A stretch of DNA of 38,578 nt from the IMG/VR virus record IMGVR_UViG_2529292720_000015; one strand, 5' to 3'. Positions 184 to 22,816 of this stretch are shown here, piece by piece (position 1 is the first letter of the stretch; the number at the start of each line of letters is the position of its first letter). The notes below the pieces were generated by a model, which was not told where the DNA came from, did not search any database, and worked only from the letters and a program-made list of their open reading frames with translations. Made by a program: the position numbers and the translations under genes. Source of the DNA: a virus. Lineage: Duplodnaviria; Heunggongvirae; Uroviricota; Caudoviricetes.

Positions 184-1722
184 ATGAGCAGCTCACTTCC
201 TGACGGTATCAATGCGCTGAAACGTCTCCTTGCCGAACAGGAGGCGCTGAACCGTGCCCTGCTGGAAAAGCTGAACGAGCGTGAACGCGAAATAGACCAT
301 CTGCAGGCACAGCTGGATAAGCTGCGCCGGATGAACTTCGGCAGCCGCTCCGAAAAAGTCTCCCGTCGTATCGCACAGATGGAAGCTGACCTGAAGGCAC
401 TTCAGAAAGAAAGTGATACCCTTACCGGTCGGGTTGACGACCCGGCCGTGCAGCGCCCGCTGCGTCAAACCCGCACCCGCAAACCGTTCCCCGAATCACT
501 CCCCCGCGATGAAAAACGGCTGCTGCCGGCAGCGTCATGCTGCCCGGAATGTGGAGGCTCACTGAGCTATCTGGGTGAGGATGCCGCCGAACAGCTGGAG
601 TTGATGCGCAGCGTCTTCCGGGTTATCCGGACTGTACGTGAAAAGCATGCCTGTACTCAGTGCGATGCCATCGTGCAGGCCCCCGCGCCTTCACGGCCCA
701 TCGAGCGGGGTATCGCAGGACCGGGGCTGCTGGCCCGCGTGCTGATCTCAAAGTATGCAGAGCACACCCCGCTGTACCGCCAGTCTGAAATGTACGGCCG
801 CCAGGGCGTGGAGCTGAGTCGTTCACTGCTGTCGGGCTGGGTGGATGCATGCTGCCGGCTACTGTCACCGCTGGAAGAAGCGCTTCAGGACTATGTGCTG
901 ACTGACGGTAAGCTCCATGCTGATGACACGCCTGTCCCGGTGCTGTTGCCAGGCAATAAGAAAACGAAGACCGGGCGGTTATGGACCTACGTTCGTGACG
1001 ACCGTAACGCCGGGTCAACGCTGGCGCCGGCGGTGTGGTTCGCTTACAGCCCGGACAGAAAAGGCATCCATCCGCAGACCCATCTTGCGGGGTTCAGTGG
1101 TGTACTGCAGGCGGATGCATACGCCGGGTTCAACGAGCTGTACCGGGATGGCCGGATAACGGAAGCCGCCTGTTGGGCTCACGCCCGCCGTAAAATCCAC
1201 GATGTGCACGTTCGCACCCCGTCAGCCCTGACGGAGGAAGCGCTGAAACGGATCGGCGAACTGTACGCCATCGAGGCAGAGATAAGGGGAATGACGGCGG
1301 AGCAGCGCCTTGCCGAACGTCAGTTGAAAACGAAACCGCTGCTGAAATCCCTGGAAAGCTGGCTGCGTGAAAAGATGAAAACCCTGTCGCGACACTCAGA
1401 ACTGGCGAAAGCGTTCGCATACGCCCTGAACCAGTGGCCGGCGCTGACGTACTATGCAGATGATGGCTGGGCTGAGGCGGACAATAACATCGCTGAAAAT
1501 GCGTTGCGGATGGTCAGTCTGGGCCGCAAAAACTACCTGTTCTTCGGTTCGGATCATGGAGGAGAGCGGGGAGCGCTGCTGTACAGCCTGATCGGGACGT
1601 GCAAACTGAACGGAGTGGAGCCAGAAAGCTACCTCCGCTATGTCCTTGACGTCATAGCCGACTGGCCGATAAACCGGGTCGGCGAACTGCTCCCCTGGCG
1701 CGTAGCACTGCCGACTGAATAA
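184..1722 (+). CDS. tnpC: IS66-family transposase (TnpC)
   Basis: 512-aa ORF with an N-terminal coiled-coil/leucine-zipper region, a Cys-rich CPECGG...CTQCD zinc-finger-like segment and a long catalytic region, typical of IS66 TnpC. Position after the TnpB-like fragment fits. Confidence 0.9.
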
Positions 1723-1738
1723 CACATCCCCGTCAATA

Positions 1739-1759
1739 CGGTTCTTGCTGCACGCTTAC
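1739..1759 (-). repeat. putative IS66 right terminal inverted repeat
   Basis: Reverse complement reads GTAAGCGTGCAGCAAGAACCG. The TAA inside GTAAGCG supplies the stop codon of the incoming minus-strand baseplate ORF. Confidence 0.5.
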
Positions 1760-2664
1760 GCATAAACAGGTACATCACTGGAACGCGAGAATTTGATTAC
1801 ATGGGGATTGCCGTATTTATCCGGAACCGTAACGGATGTTGTACCGTGAGTGGCTGTCCCCTGGCCTTTATTCCCTCTGATAGCCTGAGCAATATCCGTC
1901 ACATCACCGCCATCCACAATTACAGCAACAGAGTGTGGCGGTAACCCGTTACCGTCCTCCGAACCAGTATCGTTTTCATAGAGTTTGTGGCGGGTTACAC
2001 CGGTAACATTAGAAACAGCACCATCCAGTGCTTCAAATGGGGTTATTGATGGCAACGCAACACTTTGCGACTGGCGGATACGTAACTCAGCATCAGTTTC
2101 TGCCGGAGAGCCAACAGTAGCCGCAGCAGGATTAGTTACCGAAACCCAGCCACGGGTTGGCGTATTAATTTCAGTGATAGTTCCAGCCAGCGCCGCCACT
2201 GCACCACTGACGGAACATGTTGCGGTCGCCATCACTGTACCATCCACGCCGACCACCACTGAAGCAGGCAAACGCCATATCACATTATTACTGTCTTTCA
2301 CGCTGCCATTAATGATGGTTGTTCCGGCAGTTCCTGTAAGAAGCAAATCAACCGTAGAGTTCGTCGCGCCTTTACGTGAAATACCATTTATTTTCACGTT
2401 ACTGGTCAGTGCAGCCCCATAGCCGGTTGCCGGTGAAAAACAGTTGTAGACAGTTATCGCCATATTATTGGCATCATGAATCGCCAGCGCCATCAGAGCC
2501 ACCATCTGGCCGTCTTTGCTGTCCGGTTCGAGGTAGGCATCACTGCCATAAATCTGCTGAAAATAGCTAATCAGGGTGCTGAGTATCGTCTGATAATCAG
2601 GCGCACTGATCCCCTCCGCGGTTACCTTTGCAGATAAACCGAGAGAATCAAGGTTCAGAGCCAT
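1756..2664 (-). CDS. baseplate J-like protein (Mu gp47 / P2 gpJ-like), 3' end interrupted by the IS66 insertion
   Basis: 302-aa ORF, last in the minus-strand baseplate cluster. Its reading frame runs uninterrupted to the IS boundary and stops on the TAA within the IS terminal GTAAGCG. The family assignment is by position and composition only. Confidence 0.5.
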   Translation of the reverse strand: MALNLDSLGLSAKVTAEGISAPDYQTILSTLISYFQQIYGSDAYLEPDSKDGQMVALMALAIHDANNMAITVYNCFSPATGYGAALTSNVKINGISRKGATNSTVDLLLTGTAGTTIINGSVKDSNNVIWRLPASVVVGVDGTVMATATCSVSGAVAALAGTITEINTPTRGWVSVTNPAAATVGSPAETDAELRIRQSQSVALPSITPFEALDGAVSNVTGVTRHKLYENDTGSEDGNGLPPHSVAVIVDGGDVTDIAQAIRGNKGQGTATHGTTSVTVPDKYGNPHVIKFSRSSDVPVYA

Positions 2665-3017
2665 TACGCCTCCGATGTAACAGTCGTTATTCCATAGAGA
2701 GTGTCGATTTCAGCGGAAAACATGACACGTCGGGTCGTGGTATCCACCGTCGTATTGAAAGAGAGGATTGATTTAACGCCCTGCGTTTCGAGGATGCGCT
2801 TACGGATCGCCAGGTTGTAAGTTTCTGGTTTTTGCCTGCCCAGCACGGACTGGATCCACGGTGTTCCCTCTGTGGTATCAAGAAACCATTGCCCATACCA
2901 CAATTCGAATCGCGTTTTCACAGCCTGCGCTACGGCCTCAGGCGAGTTAATCAGCCAGGTGTCATCACCGCTGCCAAAGGTGTAATCGCCATCGGCGTCT
3001 TCACGTCTGTATCGCAT
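2664..3017 (-). CDS. baseplate protein (gpW/gp25-like position), putative
   Basis: 117-aa ORF with start/stop overlap to both neighbours in the baseplate cluster. Assigned by synteny only. Confidence 0.4.
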   Translation of the reverse strand: MRYRREDADGDYTFGSGDDTWLINSPEAVAQAVKTRFELWYGQWFLDTTEGTPWIQSVLGRQKPETYNLAIRKRILETQGVKSILSFNTTVDTTTRRVMFSAEIDTLYGITTVTSEA

Positions 3018-3769
3018 CAGTTTACCCCGTCGGTACTGCTTCCACCACGCTGAACACCACCATGAGTGTGTGTATCATCGATTGGCTTGCCATTAGCCTT
3101 CACGCTCCCCAAAAACTCAACAGCACCAGTGATTTTTGAAGCCACACCAGAAACCACAGACCCCACCATGCCCCCCATCCAGGTTAACAGGCCATGAATG
3201 GTTACTTTCTCAGAAAAATCAGCCAGAGGGGCAACCACATCAAGACCACCTGGAGCGACAATTTTAATTTTCCTGGTATCAGGATTAAGCTCAAAATAGG
3301 TGCTGCCGTCATCACTACGCAACTGTGTGGCACTGGTATTAATACCGCTAATCTTCCTTGCCTGCGACTGGGGACCGACAATACAAAACGCATCCGATAA
3401 ATCATGCATTCTGTCATCGACCGACTCCTGTATCCCGCCACTCTGCCACCAGAAATCAATACAACGATCGGCAAAAATCACCAAACATTCATCACCGGCT
3501 TTAACTGGGAACGTTAGCGTACATCCTCCGCCGCGCGGGAATACCACTGGCACATCCACCAGCAATGGGTAATTTTTGGTAATGCGGTTGCCGTCATTAT
3601 CCTTTTCAACCGAACGGATAGCAGGCTGCACAACTGCCGTCACCGCATCAGGATCGAATGACTGAATAATGCCAGGCAAGGCGACACGGATCTGGTTCTT
3701 TGTTGTTTCCCGCTCGGACTTGAATGTTTCGGCAAGGTCACCGCTACGAGTCTGGTCTGATATGGCCAT
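3017..3769 (-). CDS. baseplate assembly/spike protein (gpV-like), putative
   Basis: The ORF track gives 3017..3802, but that start is a TTG inside a terminator hairpin. The ATG at 3769..3767 is preceded by GGAG with 8-nt spacing, giving a 250-aa product beginning MAISDQ. Confidence 0.5.
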   Translation of the reverse strand: MAISDQTRSGDLAETFKSERETTKNQIRVALPGIIQSFDPDAVTAVVQPAIRSVEKDNDGNRITKNYPLLVDVPVVFPRGGGCTLTFPVKAGDECLVIFADRCIDFWWQSGGIQESVDDRMHDLSDAFCIVGPQSQARKISGINTSATQLRSDDGSTYFELNPDTRKIKIVAPGGLDVVAPLADFSEKVTIHGLLTWMGGMVGSVVSGVASKITGAVEFLGSVKANGKPIDDTHTHGGVQRGGSSTDGVN

Positions 3770-3782
3770 TTGATAAACTCCT

Positions 3783-3811
3783 GAAAACAAAAAACCCGCC
3801 AAGTGGCGGGT
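3783..3811 (-). terminator. intrinsic terminator downstream of the tail-module moron
   Basis: On the minus strand, a 7-bp stem (A-CCCGCC / GGCGGG-T) with a 4-nt loop is followed by TTTTTGTTTT. Confidence 0.6.
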
Positions 3812-3830
3812 CTACAGGAACAACTCTAAG

Positions 3831-4001
3831 TTTATTTTTTCTGTTTAAAATTGTCCAACTCAGGTTCTTTAACGCTTTCTGTCATGTAATCCAATCCATC
3901 AAAAGGTACTTCAAGCATTATACTGCTTTCATAATCAGCCATGGATTGCTCTGCTTGCGTTGGCTTACTTTGCTGTGAGTTGTCATTATTTGATGTTGTC
4001 A
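3831..4001 (-). CDS. small acidic hypothetical protein (56 aa), third gene of the tail-module moron
   Basis: ATG at 4001 sits 4 nt after the stop of the upstream membrane-protein gene. Product MTTSNNDNSQQSKPTQAEQSMADYESSIMLEVPFDGLDYMTESVKEPELDNFKQKK. It is below the ORF-track length cutoff and has only a weak SD. Confidence 0.35.
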
Positions 4002-4005
4002 TCAA

Positions 4006-4560
4006 CTATGCCTTATTTATCAAAAGAAAAGTAACCGATAATATGAAAAAACCGAAAGATAACGCAATTCCTTCAAAAAGATAACGAGCATAAACTGCCT
4101 TTTCTTTATGAAGACTTTCGATCAATTCAACAGCTTTACCATACTGAAACATATGGTATCTAAGCGTTTTAATTTTATCACCGTAAAGTAAAAAATCATG
4201 CTCTTCTTTTCGCTTATGAATAGGCATTTTTGGTATATCTTTCAGTCCCCAAGTACGCCATAGGAAAAAAAAGCACATAACAATACAAACAAAGCACAGA
4301 TATGCACAAAGTATAGATAATGTTAAAAACCAATTACTCTTTAGCCCACTTTTGAAATCAACAGTCCCAAATACAGCCAGTAGAGCAGAGGTTTCTACAG
4401 CTAAAATAGCAAGAAGGTAGTTAACTTTGTCCTCAAGACGACGATATGTTGATTTTGCTTCCTCATATCTATCTTTATAATATGACGAAATAAAATCAGC
4501 GCCTATAGTCTCAATTGCCTTTTGTTCTTCTGTTGTATCTATTGGCGAACGCTTGCTCAT
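4006..4560 (-). CDS. hypothetical inner-membrane protein (about 3 TM helices), moron
   Basis: 184-aa ORF in a low-GC segment. It has a hydrophilic N-terminal region of about 45 aa and three hydrophobic helices (LLAILAVETSALLAVFG, WFLTLSILCAYLCFVCIVMCFFFLW, IALSFGFFILSVTFLLI). Its start is 7 nt after the upstream stop. Confidence 0.6.
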   Translation of the reverse strand: MSKRSPIDTTEEQKAIETIGADFISSYYKDRYEEAKSTYRRLEDKVNYLLAILAVETSALLAVFGTVDFKSGLKSNWFLTLSILCAYLCFVCIVMCFFFLWRTWGLKDIPKMPIHKRKEEHDFLLYGDKIKTLRYHMFQYGKAVELIESLHKEKAVYARYLFEGIALSFGFFILSVTFLLINKA

Positions 4561-4567
4561 TTCTTAA

Positions 4568-4915
4568 TCAACCAACAACTTTCTTACACGGGAAAGAGCC
4601 AATAATTTTCGGAGCATCCATGCTGTTCTGCAACAACTGGACGTTCAGGAAACGCGTTTTAGTGCCCGGTCGATGGATATACTCGAACCCATAATTGTTG
4701 CCATCTTTGGCAGGCATCAGCTCCATTTTGATCTGCATGCCTGTACCGTCTTTACCCAACATTTTTACTTTTTGGGATGTTACTGTTTCGCCATTGATTT
4801 TAAATAATGAGTCAGGGATCGCATCCATACGAAAGTTGCCGCATTGCATCGTTATGGTGTTTGCACTTACACCAACAGACACTAACGCCAGCAATGAAAA
4901 TATCCATCGTTTCAT
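4568..4915 (-). CDS. hypothetical secreted/periplasmic protein with signal peptide, moron
   Basis: The ORF track gives 4568..4996. The likely start is the ATG at 4915 (MKRWIFSLLALVSVGVSA-NT..., a signal peptide with an AXA-like cleavage site), preceded by GAGG; the upstream gene's TAG stop lies 2 nt before it. There are two Cys in the mature part. Confidence 0.55.
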   Translation of the reverse strand: MKRWIFSLLALVSVGVSANTITMQCGNFRMDAIPDSLFKINGETVTSQKVKMLGKDGTGMQIKMELMPAKDGNNYGFEYIHRPGTKTRFLNVQLLQNSMDAPKIIGSFPCKKVVG

Positions 4916-22393: not shown

Positions 22394-22816
22394 TTATGCC
22401 GCCGAGCAGCTCCTACGCAAAGTCCTGATAGCCTGAGGCTTTGACTGAACCGACTGATCCATTTCGAGCACCACATCCAGCATGGCTAAGCAACCGTCAA
22501 TAAATCCCTCTGCCGCCTGAAGCCTCTTCAGAACGTGGGTGTGAGATACGCCGAGCTTCTCACCCATCGCCCTCACGGGCATGGCCTGGACGTAATGCCA
22601 CTCAAGGAGCGTGCACAGATACGGATCTTTTTTCTTCAAGCAGCTCATAGCGGAGTTGATGATAAGACCGTCATTGTCACTGCATTTCAGCCTTCCAGAC
22701 TGCGTCGCGGGTAGCAGATTCTTAAACCCGGCTGCAACAGGAGGAAAGTAGACGCTACCACCTTCACTCGCTGCCCAGCCACCCCAGCGCTCTAAAACCT
22801 GTTGAATATTACGCAT
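22394..22816 (-). CDS. Q: late-gene antitermination protein Q (Q82-type family)
   Basis: 140-aa ORF with Cys-rich and basic segments, upstream of the late leader region and lysis genes. Family assignment is from recalled similarity. Confidence 0.65.
   Translation of the reverse strand: MRNIQQVLERWGGWAASEGGSVYFPPVAAGFKNLLPATQSGRLKCSDNDGLIINSAMSCLKKKDPYLCTLLEWHYVQAMPVRAMGEKLGVSHTHVLKRLQAAEGFIDGCLAMLDVVLEMDQSVQSKPQAIRTLRRSCSAA

Follow-up and report, generated by a model that had tools for sequence, protein, structure and literature searches.

A conserved secreted-protein gene, a variable cargo slot and a shared terminator between the baseplate hub and spike genes of SEN34-like myovirus prophages

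Two kinds of described prophage locus come closest to the one considered here. In the tail morons of lambdoid phages (lom, bor and HK97 gp15; PMC3594210), genes of deviating GC (guanine plus cytosine) content stand between late genes, are followed by a terminator and lie under Q-type antitermination. In the hotspots of P2-like prophages and P4-like satellites, many alternative small low-GC gene sets, some of them recognisable toxins or nucleases, occupy a fixed position in otherwise near-identical elements (Rousset et al. 2022, PMC9122126). The present locus was found in IMG/VR virus record IMGVR_UViG_2529292720_000015 (Caudoviricetes), a stretch of 38,578 nucleotides (nt) referred to below as the window. 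It occupies positions 3,783 to 4,915, between the genes for a baseplate hub and a baseplate spike, and consists of three genes, here called A, B and C, and an intrinsic terminator. A preliminary description, made without database searches, had presented it as a single inserted moron of three genes and a terminator of its own, which the prophage would express and which might serve to block receptors or modify the envelope, with Cor, Lom and Bor as precedents.

Comparison with related tail clusters reveals a composite arrangement. The comparative set comprised 126 loci with both a hub and a spike gene (from IMG/VR, GTDB genomes and phage records), in which the intervening open reading frames (ORFs) were clustered; a hub-sampled subset of 112 loci was collected via the hub gene alone. 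An A-family gene lies directly 3' of the hub in 98 of these 112 loci, whereas B is present in only 7 (about 6%), and A is packed between hub and spike in distant lineages, so that a single three-gene insertion does not describe the locus. The variability anticipated in related tail clusters is found for B-C, with A conserved, and the hub-spike interval does indeed harbour accessory, non-structural genes of low GC that vary from one close relative to the next. Alternative small low-GC sets share a fixed position in near-identical elements, which is also true of the P2/P4 hotspots; unlike those hotspots, the slot occurs in lambdoid-regulated SEN34-like myoviruses, inside the baseplate operon, with a conserved gene for a secreted protein on one side and a conserved terminator on the other. 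The locus departs from the lambdoid morons in that no promoter was found, in that its terminator goes with the slot and in that A is not an extra gene. Absence between the same neighbours in close relatives, a mark of morons, is seen for B-C and not for A; deviating base composition, another such mark, is present, with the same low GC in all diverged orthologues. A Pfam scan gave no sequence relation to Lom, Bor or gp15, and no paper describing the hub-spike slot was found.

Gene A, the variable slot and its terminator

The TAG stop codon of the hub gene (4920-4918) is followed by AA and then by the ATG of A, which confirms the spacing of two nt given in the preliminary description. The N-terminus of the protein, MKRWIFSLLALVSVGVSA followed by NT, has the n-region, h-region and final VSA of a textbook Sec signal peptide. 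Two Cys, C25 and C110, are invariant across 37 homologues, and signal peptide and Cys pair were retained in every A homologue checked, in line with the secreted two-Cys protein of about 115 amino acids (aa) first described. A is predicted to form an 8-stranded beta-barrel and would be exported, disulfide-bonded and periplasmic. Its signal peptide, ending in VSA before NT, has no lipobox Cys, and the features by which Cor, Llp, Bor and Lom are recognised are lacking; together with the negative Pfam result this removes the proposed precedent, and nothing indicates receptor blocking. The small periplasmic lysozyme inhibitors PliC and MliC are likewise 8-stranded beta-barrels, but A matches no such family profile in Pfam.

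Pfam, NCBIfam and PADLOC gave no match to A, an hmmscan against NCBIfam release 20 returned no model, and a profile search against PDB sequences gave nothing below E = 0.47. The A orthologue WP_000832849.1, encoded at the same position in a 99% identical Escherichia coli locus, is named by the NCBI pipeline as an STY1065/STY2022 family phage-derived protein; the name conveys no function, and no literature on STY1065/STY2022 was found. In Salmonella phage SEN34 (L003, NC_028699) the GenBank product of gene SEN34_20 is a protein of 77 aa starting at an internal ATG, and its ORF extends upstream to give a full 113-aa A homologue with signal peptide. It was also observed that the tape-measure protein of the window has a C-terminal region with an RNNNPGNL motif, and that in its equally long homologues a Pfam tag for SLT (lytic transglycosylase) has been precomputed; when the window protein itself was scanned with Pfam, no SLT match came up. 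Inhibition of such a domain by A was considered and left as speculation, the presence of A not tracking the SLT tag in the few loci inspected.

Between phages whose hubs share 81-96% identity, A proteins share 52-81%, with the C-terminal two thirds highly conserved and the N-terminal strands variable. Six of the seven loci containing A only are packed hub-A-spike without a hairpin, and in six distant loci of this packed form (hub identity 53-57%) A keeps its signal peptide and both Cys. Conservation of A behind the hub gene, extending to such distant lineages, indicates a long-standing gene of the tail cluster and not part of an insert. A minority of loci are without A in the slot (for example L134 and L138), and in some others an unrelated lipoprotein (L009, L047) or secreted protein replaces it. 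A 296-aa lipoprotein-like protein of Klebsiella aerogenes has the A domain as its C-terminus. In Serratia aquatilis (L122, NZ_CP173186, 7092-11980) a tandem array of about seven A paralogs is found, one of them frameshifted, each with its own signal peptide and two of them preceded by 42-aa remnants of the 3' end of the hub gene. The layout of this array resembles that of orphan toxin C-terminus (toxin-CT)/immunity arrays, a pattern typical of diversifying immunity or exclusion genes; recombination at the conserved end of the hub gene would fit it as well.

The left edge of the slot is the conserved 3' part of A. From there to the spike gene, 41 gene arrangements and 44 families of non-A ORFs were recorded in the 126 loci, with a hub-spike gap of 0 to about 2200 bp in every locus except that of S. 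aquatilis (about 5 kb). Relatives at 95-99% hub identity carry different cargo, and B-C is absent from the isolated, sequenced phages SEN34, vB_EcoM-606R2 and YP3. The commonest cargo is a pair of 243-aa and 142-aa proteins (L083, L096, L097, L020 and about 30 other loci) without Pfam or NCBIfam family, for which the only match is a weak one of the 142-aa protein to PADLOC HEPN_IX (E = 0.009). In L018, L026, L085-L087 and L107 a 192-aa protein is followed by a 138-aa YafO-family toxin (PF13957, E = 4e-17), and the two are probably a toxin/antitoxin pair inside the baseplate operon. The locus of Rouxiella silvae (L111, 7480-8328) encodes a 282-aa fusion of N-terminal transmembrane (TM) helices, two in number, and an Mrr_cat nuclease (Pfam E = 3e-27), which in addition matches the Zorya ZorD and PDC-S02 models and may be related to membrane-bound nucleases that cleave injected phage DNA. 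Other cargo includes DUF4282 and DUF2335 membrane proteins, a secreted tRNA_anti-like protein of the oligonucleotide/oligosaccharide-binding (OB) fold, and a 170-aa protein with an RNNLFH (Rx4H) motif; most cargo has no annotation. What can be recognised, in few members, would lend the cargo, like that of the P2/P4 hotspots, a toxin/antitoxin and defence character.

At the other edge stands the hairpin AGACCCGCC-ACTT-GGCGGGTTT with its T-run. The 9-bp GC-rich stem (3813-3792) lies about 10 nt upstream of the Shine-Dalgarno sequence of the spike gene, the fold energy is -21.3 kcal/mol (z = -2.6), and in a terminator scan this was the sole minus-strand match of that quality near the cassette. 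The strong hairpin of the preliminary description is thus real, but it is not the cassette's own: the arrangement AAACCCGCC-NNNN-GGCGGGTTTTTTGCTTTCTGGAG...ATG(spike) recurs 5' of the spike gene in 110 of the 126 loci, with any cargo and across the 41 arrangements, and the same hairpin is present in two loci with an empty slot. Among relatives from Pantoea, Serratia and Rouxiella the loop and stem bases vary and the hairpin is retained. Since it is independent of the cargo, the hairpin marks the right border of the slot and is not cassette-specific. The window contains a Q antiterminator, so that late transcription is expected, from lambda biology, to read through the hairpin; this antiterminator is also the likely reason that a strong terminator would be tolerated inside a late tail operon. 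A consensus sigma-70 scan of the window and of the orthologous Salmonella and Serratia loci showed no site above chance 5' of A or B, with counts at or below shuffled expectation, the scan not covering weak or non-sigma-70 promoters. The suggested expression from the prophage found no backing in this result.

The B-C module and its relatives

B starts 7 nt after A and, as described, is a 184-aa protein with three hydrophobic segments (residues 46-69, 75-106 and 160-184). Its two long hydrophilic regions contain 9 and 12 Lys/Arg residues, as against 2 in the short loop, with acidic residues offsetting the N-terminal count; this distribution suggests, and does not establish, an N-in topology. 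The periplasmic loop has only about 10 residues, and the layout would be a cytoplasmic N-terminal helix, TM1, TM2, a cytoplasmic helical hairpin and TM3 (AlphaFold predicted local distance difference test score, pLDDT, 79.5). The N-terminal helix carries the invariant motif Y..RY.E....YRRLEDK, and the invariant juxtamembrane positions are Y27, R31, Y32, E34, Y39, R41-L-E-D-K45 and N47. Elsewhere, E56 and S58 in TM1 and P110, M112 and P113 in the loop after TM2 are invariant. The start of C abuts the stop of B. C is the 56-aa acidic protein first reported (isoelectric point, pI, 4.2), has the motif VPFDG..YMTES, and diverges by 0.43, 0.29 and 0.60 at the three codon positions.

Close homologues of B fall into 22 clusters, and those with examined context occupy the same slot in Salmonella (including prophages carrying sopE), Klebsiella and Serratia. 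All 18 slot loci that contain B, drawn from Escherichia, Salmonella, Klebsiella and Serratia, have a small ORF directly 3' of it; the partners in the latter three genera have 52-57 aa and start abutting the B stop. Across these genera B is 39-55% identical and the hub 63-84%. Three Salmonella loci (L004, L006, L007) have A and B-C orthologues together with sopE, which lies just past the tail-fibre assembly gene, and the B orthologue P0010 was seen on more than 700 contigs, so that the module is widespread in Salmonella.

When 1.8 billion representative proteins were searched by profile, 81 full-length relatives of B were recovered, which are 160-260 aa long and share RLEDKA.K. No Pfam family was found for the remote relatives; matches to 8xMP and DUF2207_C in Pfam scans of 17 close and 50 remote relatives were scattered and sub-threshold and were rejected as noise, and nothing relevant was found in the literature on "8xMP". 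A profile search with B against PDB sequences gave nothing significant. Two diverged B subtypes (23-26% identity) again occupy the hub-spike slot, with partners of 61-71 aa (L144, L150). In a lambdoid nin region of Citrobacter (L140), a B-like gene with a 58-aa partner and a terminator lies between DUF977 and dinI/rusA/Q. On a siphovirus-like contig (L145) a B-like gene among tail genes is followed by a 32-aa ORF without clear partner motif. No recognisable partner accompanies the B-like genes near hipA in Acinetobacter (L142, L149) or the one beside a DUF4145 gene on a 5.7-kb Vibrio diabolicus contig (L151). The latter contig has the look of an integron cassette array, with many small ORFs and spacers of about 30 codons.

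The small partners range in pI from 4.2 to 9.7 and have in common the motif [IV]x[FY]D...[IVM]xES. A shared motif despite varying charge suggests a disordered protein that docks via a linear motif. An acidic DNA mimic was considered and rejected for C, as diverged partners are basic (pI 9.6-9.8) and the conserved part is the short motif only.

Among curated families in Pfam, NCBIfam and PADLOC, none was found for A, B or C, and the sole match was a weak one of B to the PADLOC PycTM model (E = 9e-4). Three PycTM models match 14, 8 and 7 of 50 members of the B superfamily (best E = 2.7e-6), and a few members match effector models of the 2TM (cyclic-oligonucleotide-based anti-phage signalling system, CBASS) and CARF-TM types. 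Four B homologues carry a precomputed PF18967 tag, and a fresh Pfam hmmscan of B relatives gave no PF18967 at E <= 1. Membrane effectors of signalling defence systems kill via membrane disruption (PMC11224242), and B, a small multi-helix inner-membrane protein with weak profile matches, resembles PycTM of the Pycsar system in these respects; it differs in having a small protein partner in place of a generator of nucleotide signals. No cyclase gene was found in any examined locus around B or its relatives, so that B is not a Pycsar component, and it may be a distant relative of signalling-defence membrane effectors.

Gene order in the window and phage type

The three ORFs were confirmed between hub and spike on the minus strand (Table 1), with boundaries identical to those in the RefSeq annotation of a 100% identical E. 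coli locus. Their low GC also stands, at 0.43 for A, 0.34 for B and 0.36 for C, compared with 0.54 for the hub and 0.50 for the spike gene, and codon position 3 diverges more than positions 1 and 2 in each of them, showing that all three are real coding genes. RefSeq names the spike gene product "membrane-puncturing spike protein". Besides the genes in the table, the window encodes a lambda-S-type holin, a CI-like repressor and a small terminase subunit.

Table 1. Features of the window in and around the hub-spike interval, and the late antiterminator
Feature	Position	Strand	Remarks
Tape-measure gene	8883-6874	-	First of the tail genes noted upstream of the hub
Dit-like gene	6874-6287	-	
Pam3-gp18-type plug gene	6287-5985	-	
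Baseplate hub gene, 354 aa	4918..5982	-	phrog_196 baseplate hub, E = 2.8e-88; weak Pfam E217_GP41; left anchor of the slot
Gene A, 115 aa, Sec-signal-peptide protein	4568..4915	-	
Gene B, 184 aa, predicted 3-TM inner-membrane protein	4006..4560	-	phrog_18554
Gene C, 56 aa, hydrophilic acidic protein	3832..4002	-	phrog_18231
Intrinsic terminator, hairpin and T-run	3783..3813	-	
Baseplate spike gene (gpV/gp138-type N-domain and Apex motif)	3017..3769	-	Pfam PF18352, E = 4e-44; PF18946; right anchor of the slot
Sheath-initiator-like gene	3017-2664	-	
Baseplate J gene, truncated	1756-2664	-	302 aa, compared with 399 aa in relatives; truncated by the IS66-family transposase
IS66-family transposase gene	184-1722	+	Adjoins truncated J
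Q-type late antiterminator	22394..22816	-	Pfam Phage_antitermQ, E = 5e-42

The tail genes of the window match those of Salmonella phage SEN34, Yersinia phage YP3 and several induced E. coli phages; of these, SEN34 is a myovirus that forms plaques, can be induced with mitomycin and is regulated in a lambda-like way (PMC5261728). Among 5426 complete E. coli genomes, 306 have the hub gene. Of these genomes, 21 contain A-B-C in full and 39 some part of the cassette. The wedge and tail-fibre genes that lie 3' of J in ETEC-2264 are missing from the window, and with the truncation of J this loss indicates that the prophage copy in the window is tail-defective, while still carrying A-B-C. In the vB_EcoM-606R2 record (L001, 4675-5739) the annotation splits the hub into two ORFs (212 and 139 aa), as a result of either a frameshift or a sequencing error.

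Functional interpretation

The functions given here to A, B and C are those we infer from these comparisons and from the systems they resemble. On balance the locus is probably a composite of an old conserved A, a recombinational slot with a shared terminator, and mobile B-C cargo that acts as a membrane anti-phage or toxin/antitoxin-like module. On this account A, a conserved member of the tail cluster, would be a periplasmic disulfide-bonded beta-barrel translationally coupled to the hub gene, and related prophages would swap unrelated accessory genes between A and the hairpin. B would be an N-in, three-TM protein of an uncharacterised superfamily, acting as a membrane-perturbing effector. 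C, small and probably disordered, would be its partner in the cytoplasm, binding to the part of B exposed there and keeping B in check or regulating it. The pair would form an abortive-infection/exclusion module, or a toxin/antitoxin-like module, of benefit to the lysogen. The hairpin would be passed by Q-antiterminated late transcription during lytic growth and would stop transcripts started locally. The most likely role for A would be in the periplasm, as an exclusion or immunity-like factor that acts on incoming phages with the same type of tail. T4 Spackle and Imm are phage-encoded periplasmic/inner-membrane exclusion proteins. P22 SieA (PMC10883804) offers a further parallel among exclusion proteins, B being predicted in the inner membrane and A in the periplasm, both phage-encoded. 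By being linked to the tail module, an exclusion specificity would stay together with its target. Tail-assembly-inhibition systems Tai/Ati (PMC11364771) and HepS (PMC13043305) were considered as precedents and set aside, the proteins being unrelated.

A bolder version of this account can be put forward tentatively. The hub-spike slot would be an undescribed anti-phage reservoir, B-C a new two-component membrane abortive-infection system, and A a diversifying, tail-linked, periplasmic immunity-like exclusion protein. B would then be a cyclase-independent, PycTM-like pore former gated by its disordered partner via the short linear motif, and signs of diversification in A would be its variable N-terminal half and the S. 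aquatilis array.

Several points weigh against the composite account with an anti-phage cargo. The divergence of B across genera roughly tracks that of hub and spike, in keeping with a long stay in place rather than frequent movement, and the low GC kept in B-C orthologues at 39-55% identity may reflect the composition of a membrane protein and not recent transfer. With most cargo unannotated, the notion of a defence hotspot depends on few recognisable members. The PycTM similarity is weak for B itself, and the Pfam tag was not reproduced by hmmscan. No promoter was found and A is coupled to the hub gene, so that expression may be purely late.

B-C might alternatively be a plain addiction module, with B a membrane toxin and C a labile antitoxin, that stabilises the prophage or the slot and has no anti-phage role. 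SpoIISA and SpoIISB of Bacillus subtilis, a three-TM membrane toxin and a 56-aa antitoxin, have the same arrangement of a membrane gene followed by a hydrophilic partner of about 56 aa; the likeness is one of arrangement only, as the topology of B differs and the sequence match is not significant (E = 0.81). This arrangement, the coupling of the gene pair, the YafO-toxin pair in the same slot and the position of B-like genes near hipA in Acinetobacter are all in keeping with addiction, but some B-like genes (L142, L151) have no recognisable partner ORF, and toxin/antitoxin and anti-phage functions are not mutually exclusive; addiction and nothing more is considered unlikely. A role in the phage's own lytic cycle, in which B-C and possibly A would act as late genes in lysis timing, envelope protection, tail assembly or ejection, would agree with the late operon, the shared strand with the tail genes, the close spacing from hub through A to B, the lack of a detected independent promoter and the maintenance of B-C at the same position in four genera. 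It is nevertheless quite unlikely, given that relatives, isolated phages among them, carry unrelated cargo or none, that B-like pairs or genes also occur in early or nin regions and outside phages, and that the phage already has a holin.

The single prophage-expressed moron of the preliminary description, receptor-blocking or envelope-modifying like Cor, Lom and Bor, draws on real features, namely low GC, secreted and membrane proteins in a tail region, a terminator downstream and the absence of B-C from close relatives. It has become very unlikely in view of the different distributions of A and B-C, the terminator common to all cargo types, the lack of a promoter and the absence from A of a lipobox or a Pfam match to Cor, Bor or Lom; the short periplasmic loop of B would also offer little surface to block an outer-membrane receptor. 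As to A, it had been allowed that homologues might prove to be conserved structural baseplate components, in which case the N-terminal hydrophobic stretch would not be cleaved. A is in fact conserved and syntenic with baseplate genes even where hub identity has fallen to about 50%, and it lies close-packed in the operon, but all homologues have a signal peptide of the classic n-h-c layout and the invariant pair of Cys that is typical of periplasmic disulfide proteins, and these features argue against a virion component. The relatives that lack A or have an unrelated lipoprotein instead, the lipoprotein-like fusion in Klebsiella and the Serratia paralog array add to this, and a structural A is regarded as extremely improbable.

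For the composite of conserved A, bounded slot and B-C cargo, the wider meaning lies in the biology of enteric prophages. Variable slots of prophages are a productive source of new immune systems, and the present one is clearly bounded on both sides. About 6% of complete E. coli genomes contain a SEN34-like myovirus prophage, and such prophages are widespread as well in Salmonella, Klebsiella, Serratia and Pantoea; the slot is common in enteric pathogens, including enterohaemorrhagic E. coli (EHEC) O55:H7 and O103:H2, enterotoxigenic E. coli (ETEC) and Salmonella prophages carrying sopE. In B-C a candidate membrane effector is joined to an unusual small partner, and the pair may be taken as a reasonable lead for a new anti-phage or toxin-like system, and A is a secreted protein conserved alongside a contractile-tail baseplate module. 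The locus can be classed with prophage hotspot cargo, and there is some chance that B-C represents a new type of membrane defence and A a new class of tail-linked exclusion protein. Should the elements be inactive, the locus would still provide a clean example of a moron slot built around a shared terminator; if they are active, they would affect phage-therapy host range and the competition among prophages in enteric pathogens.

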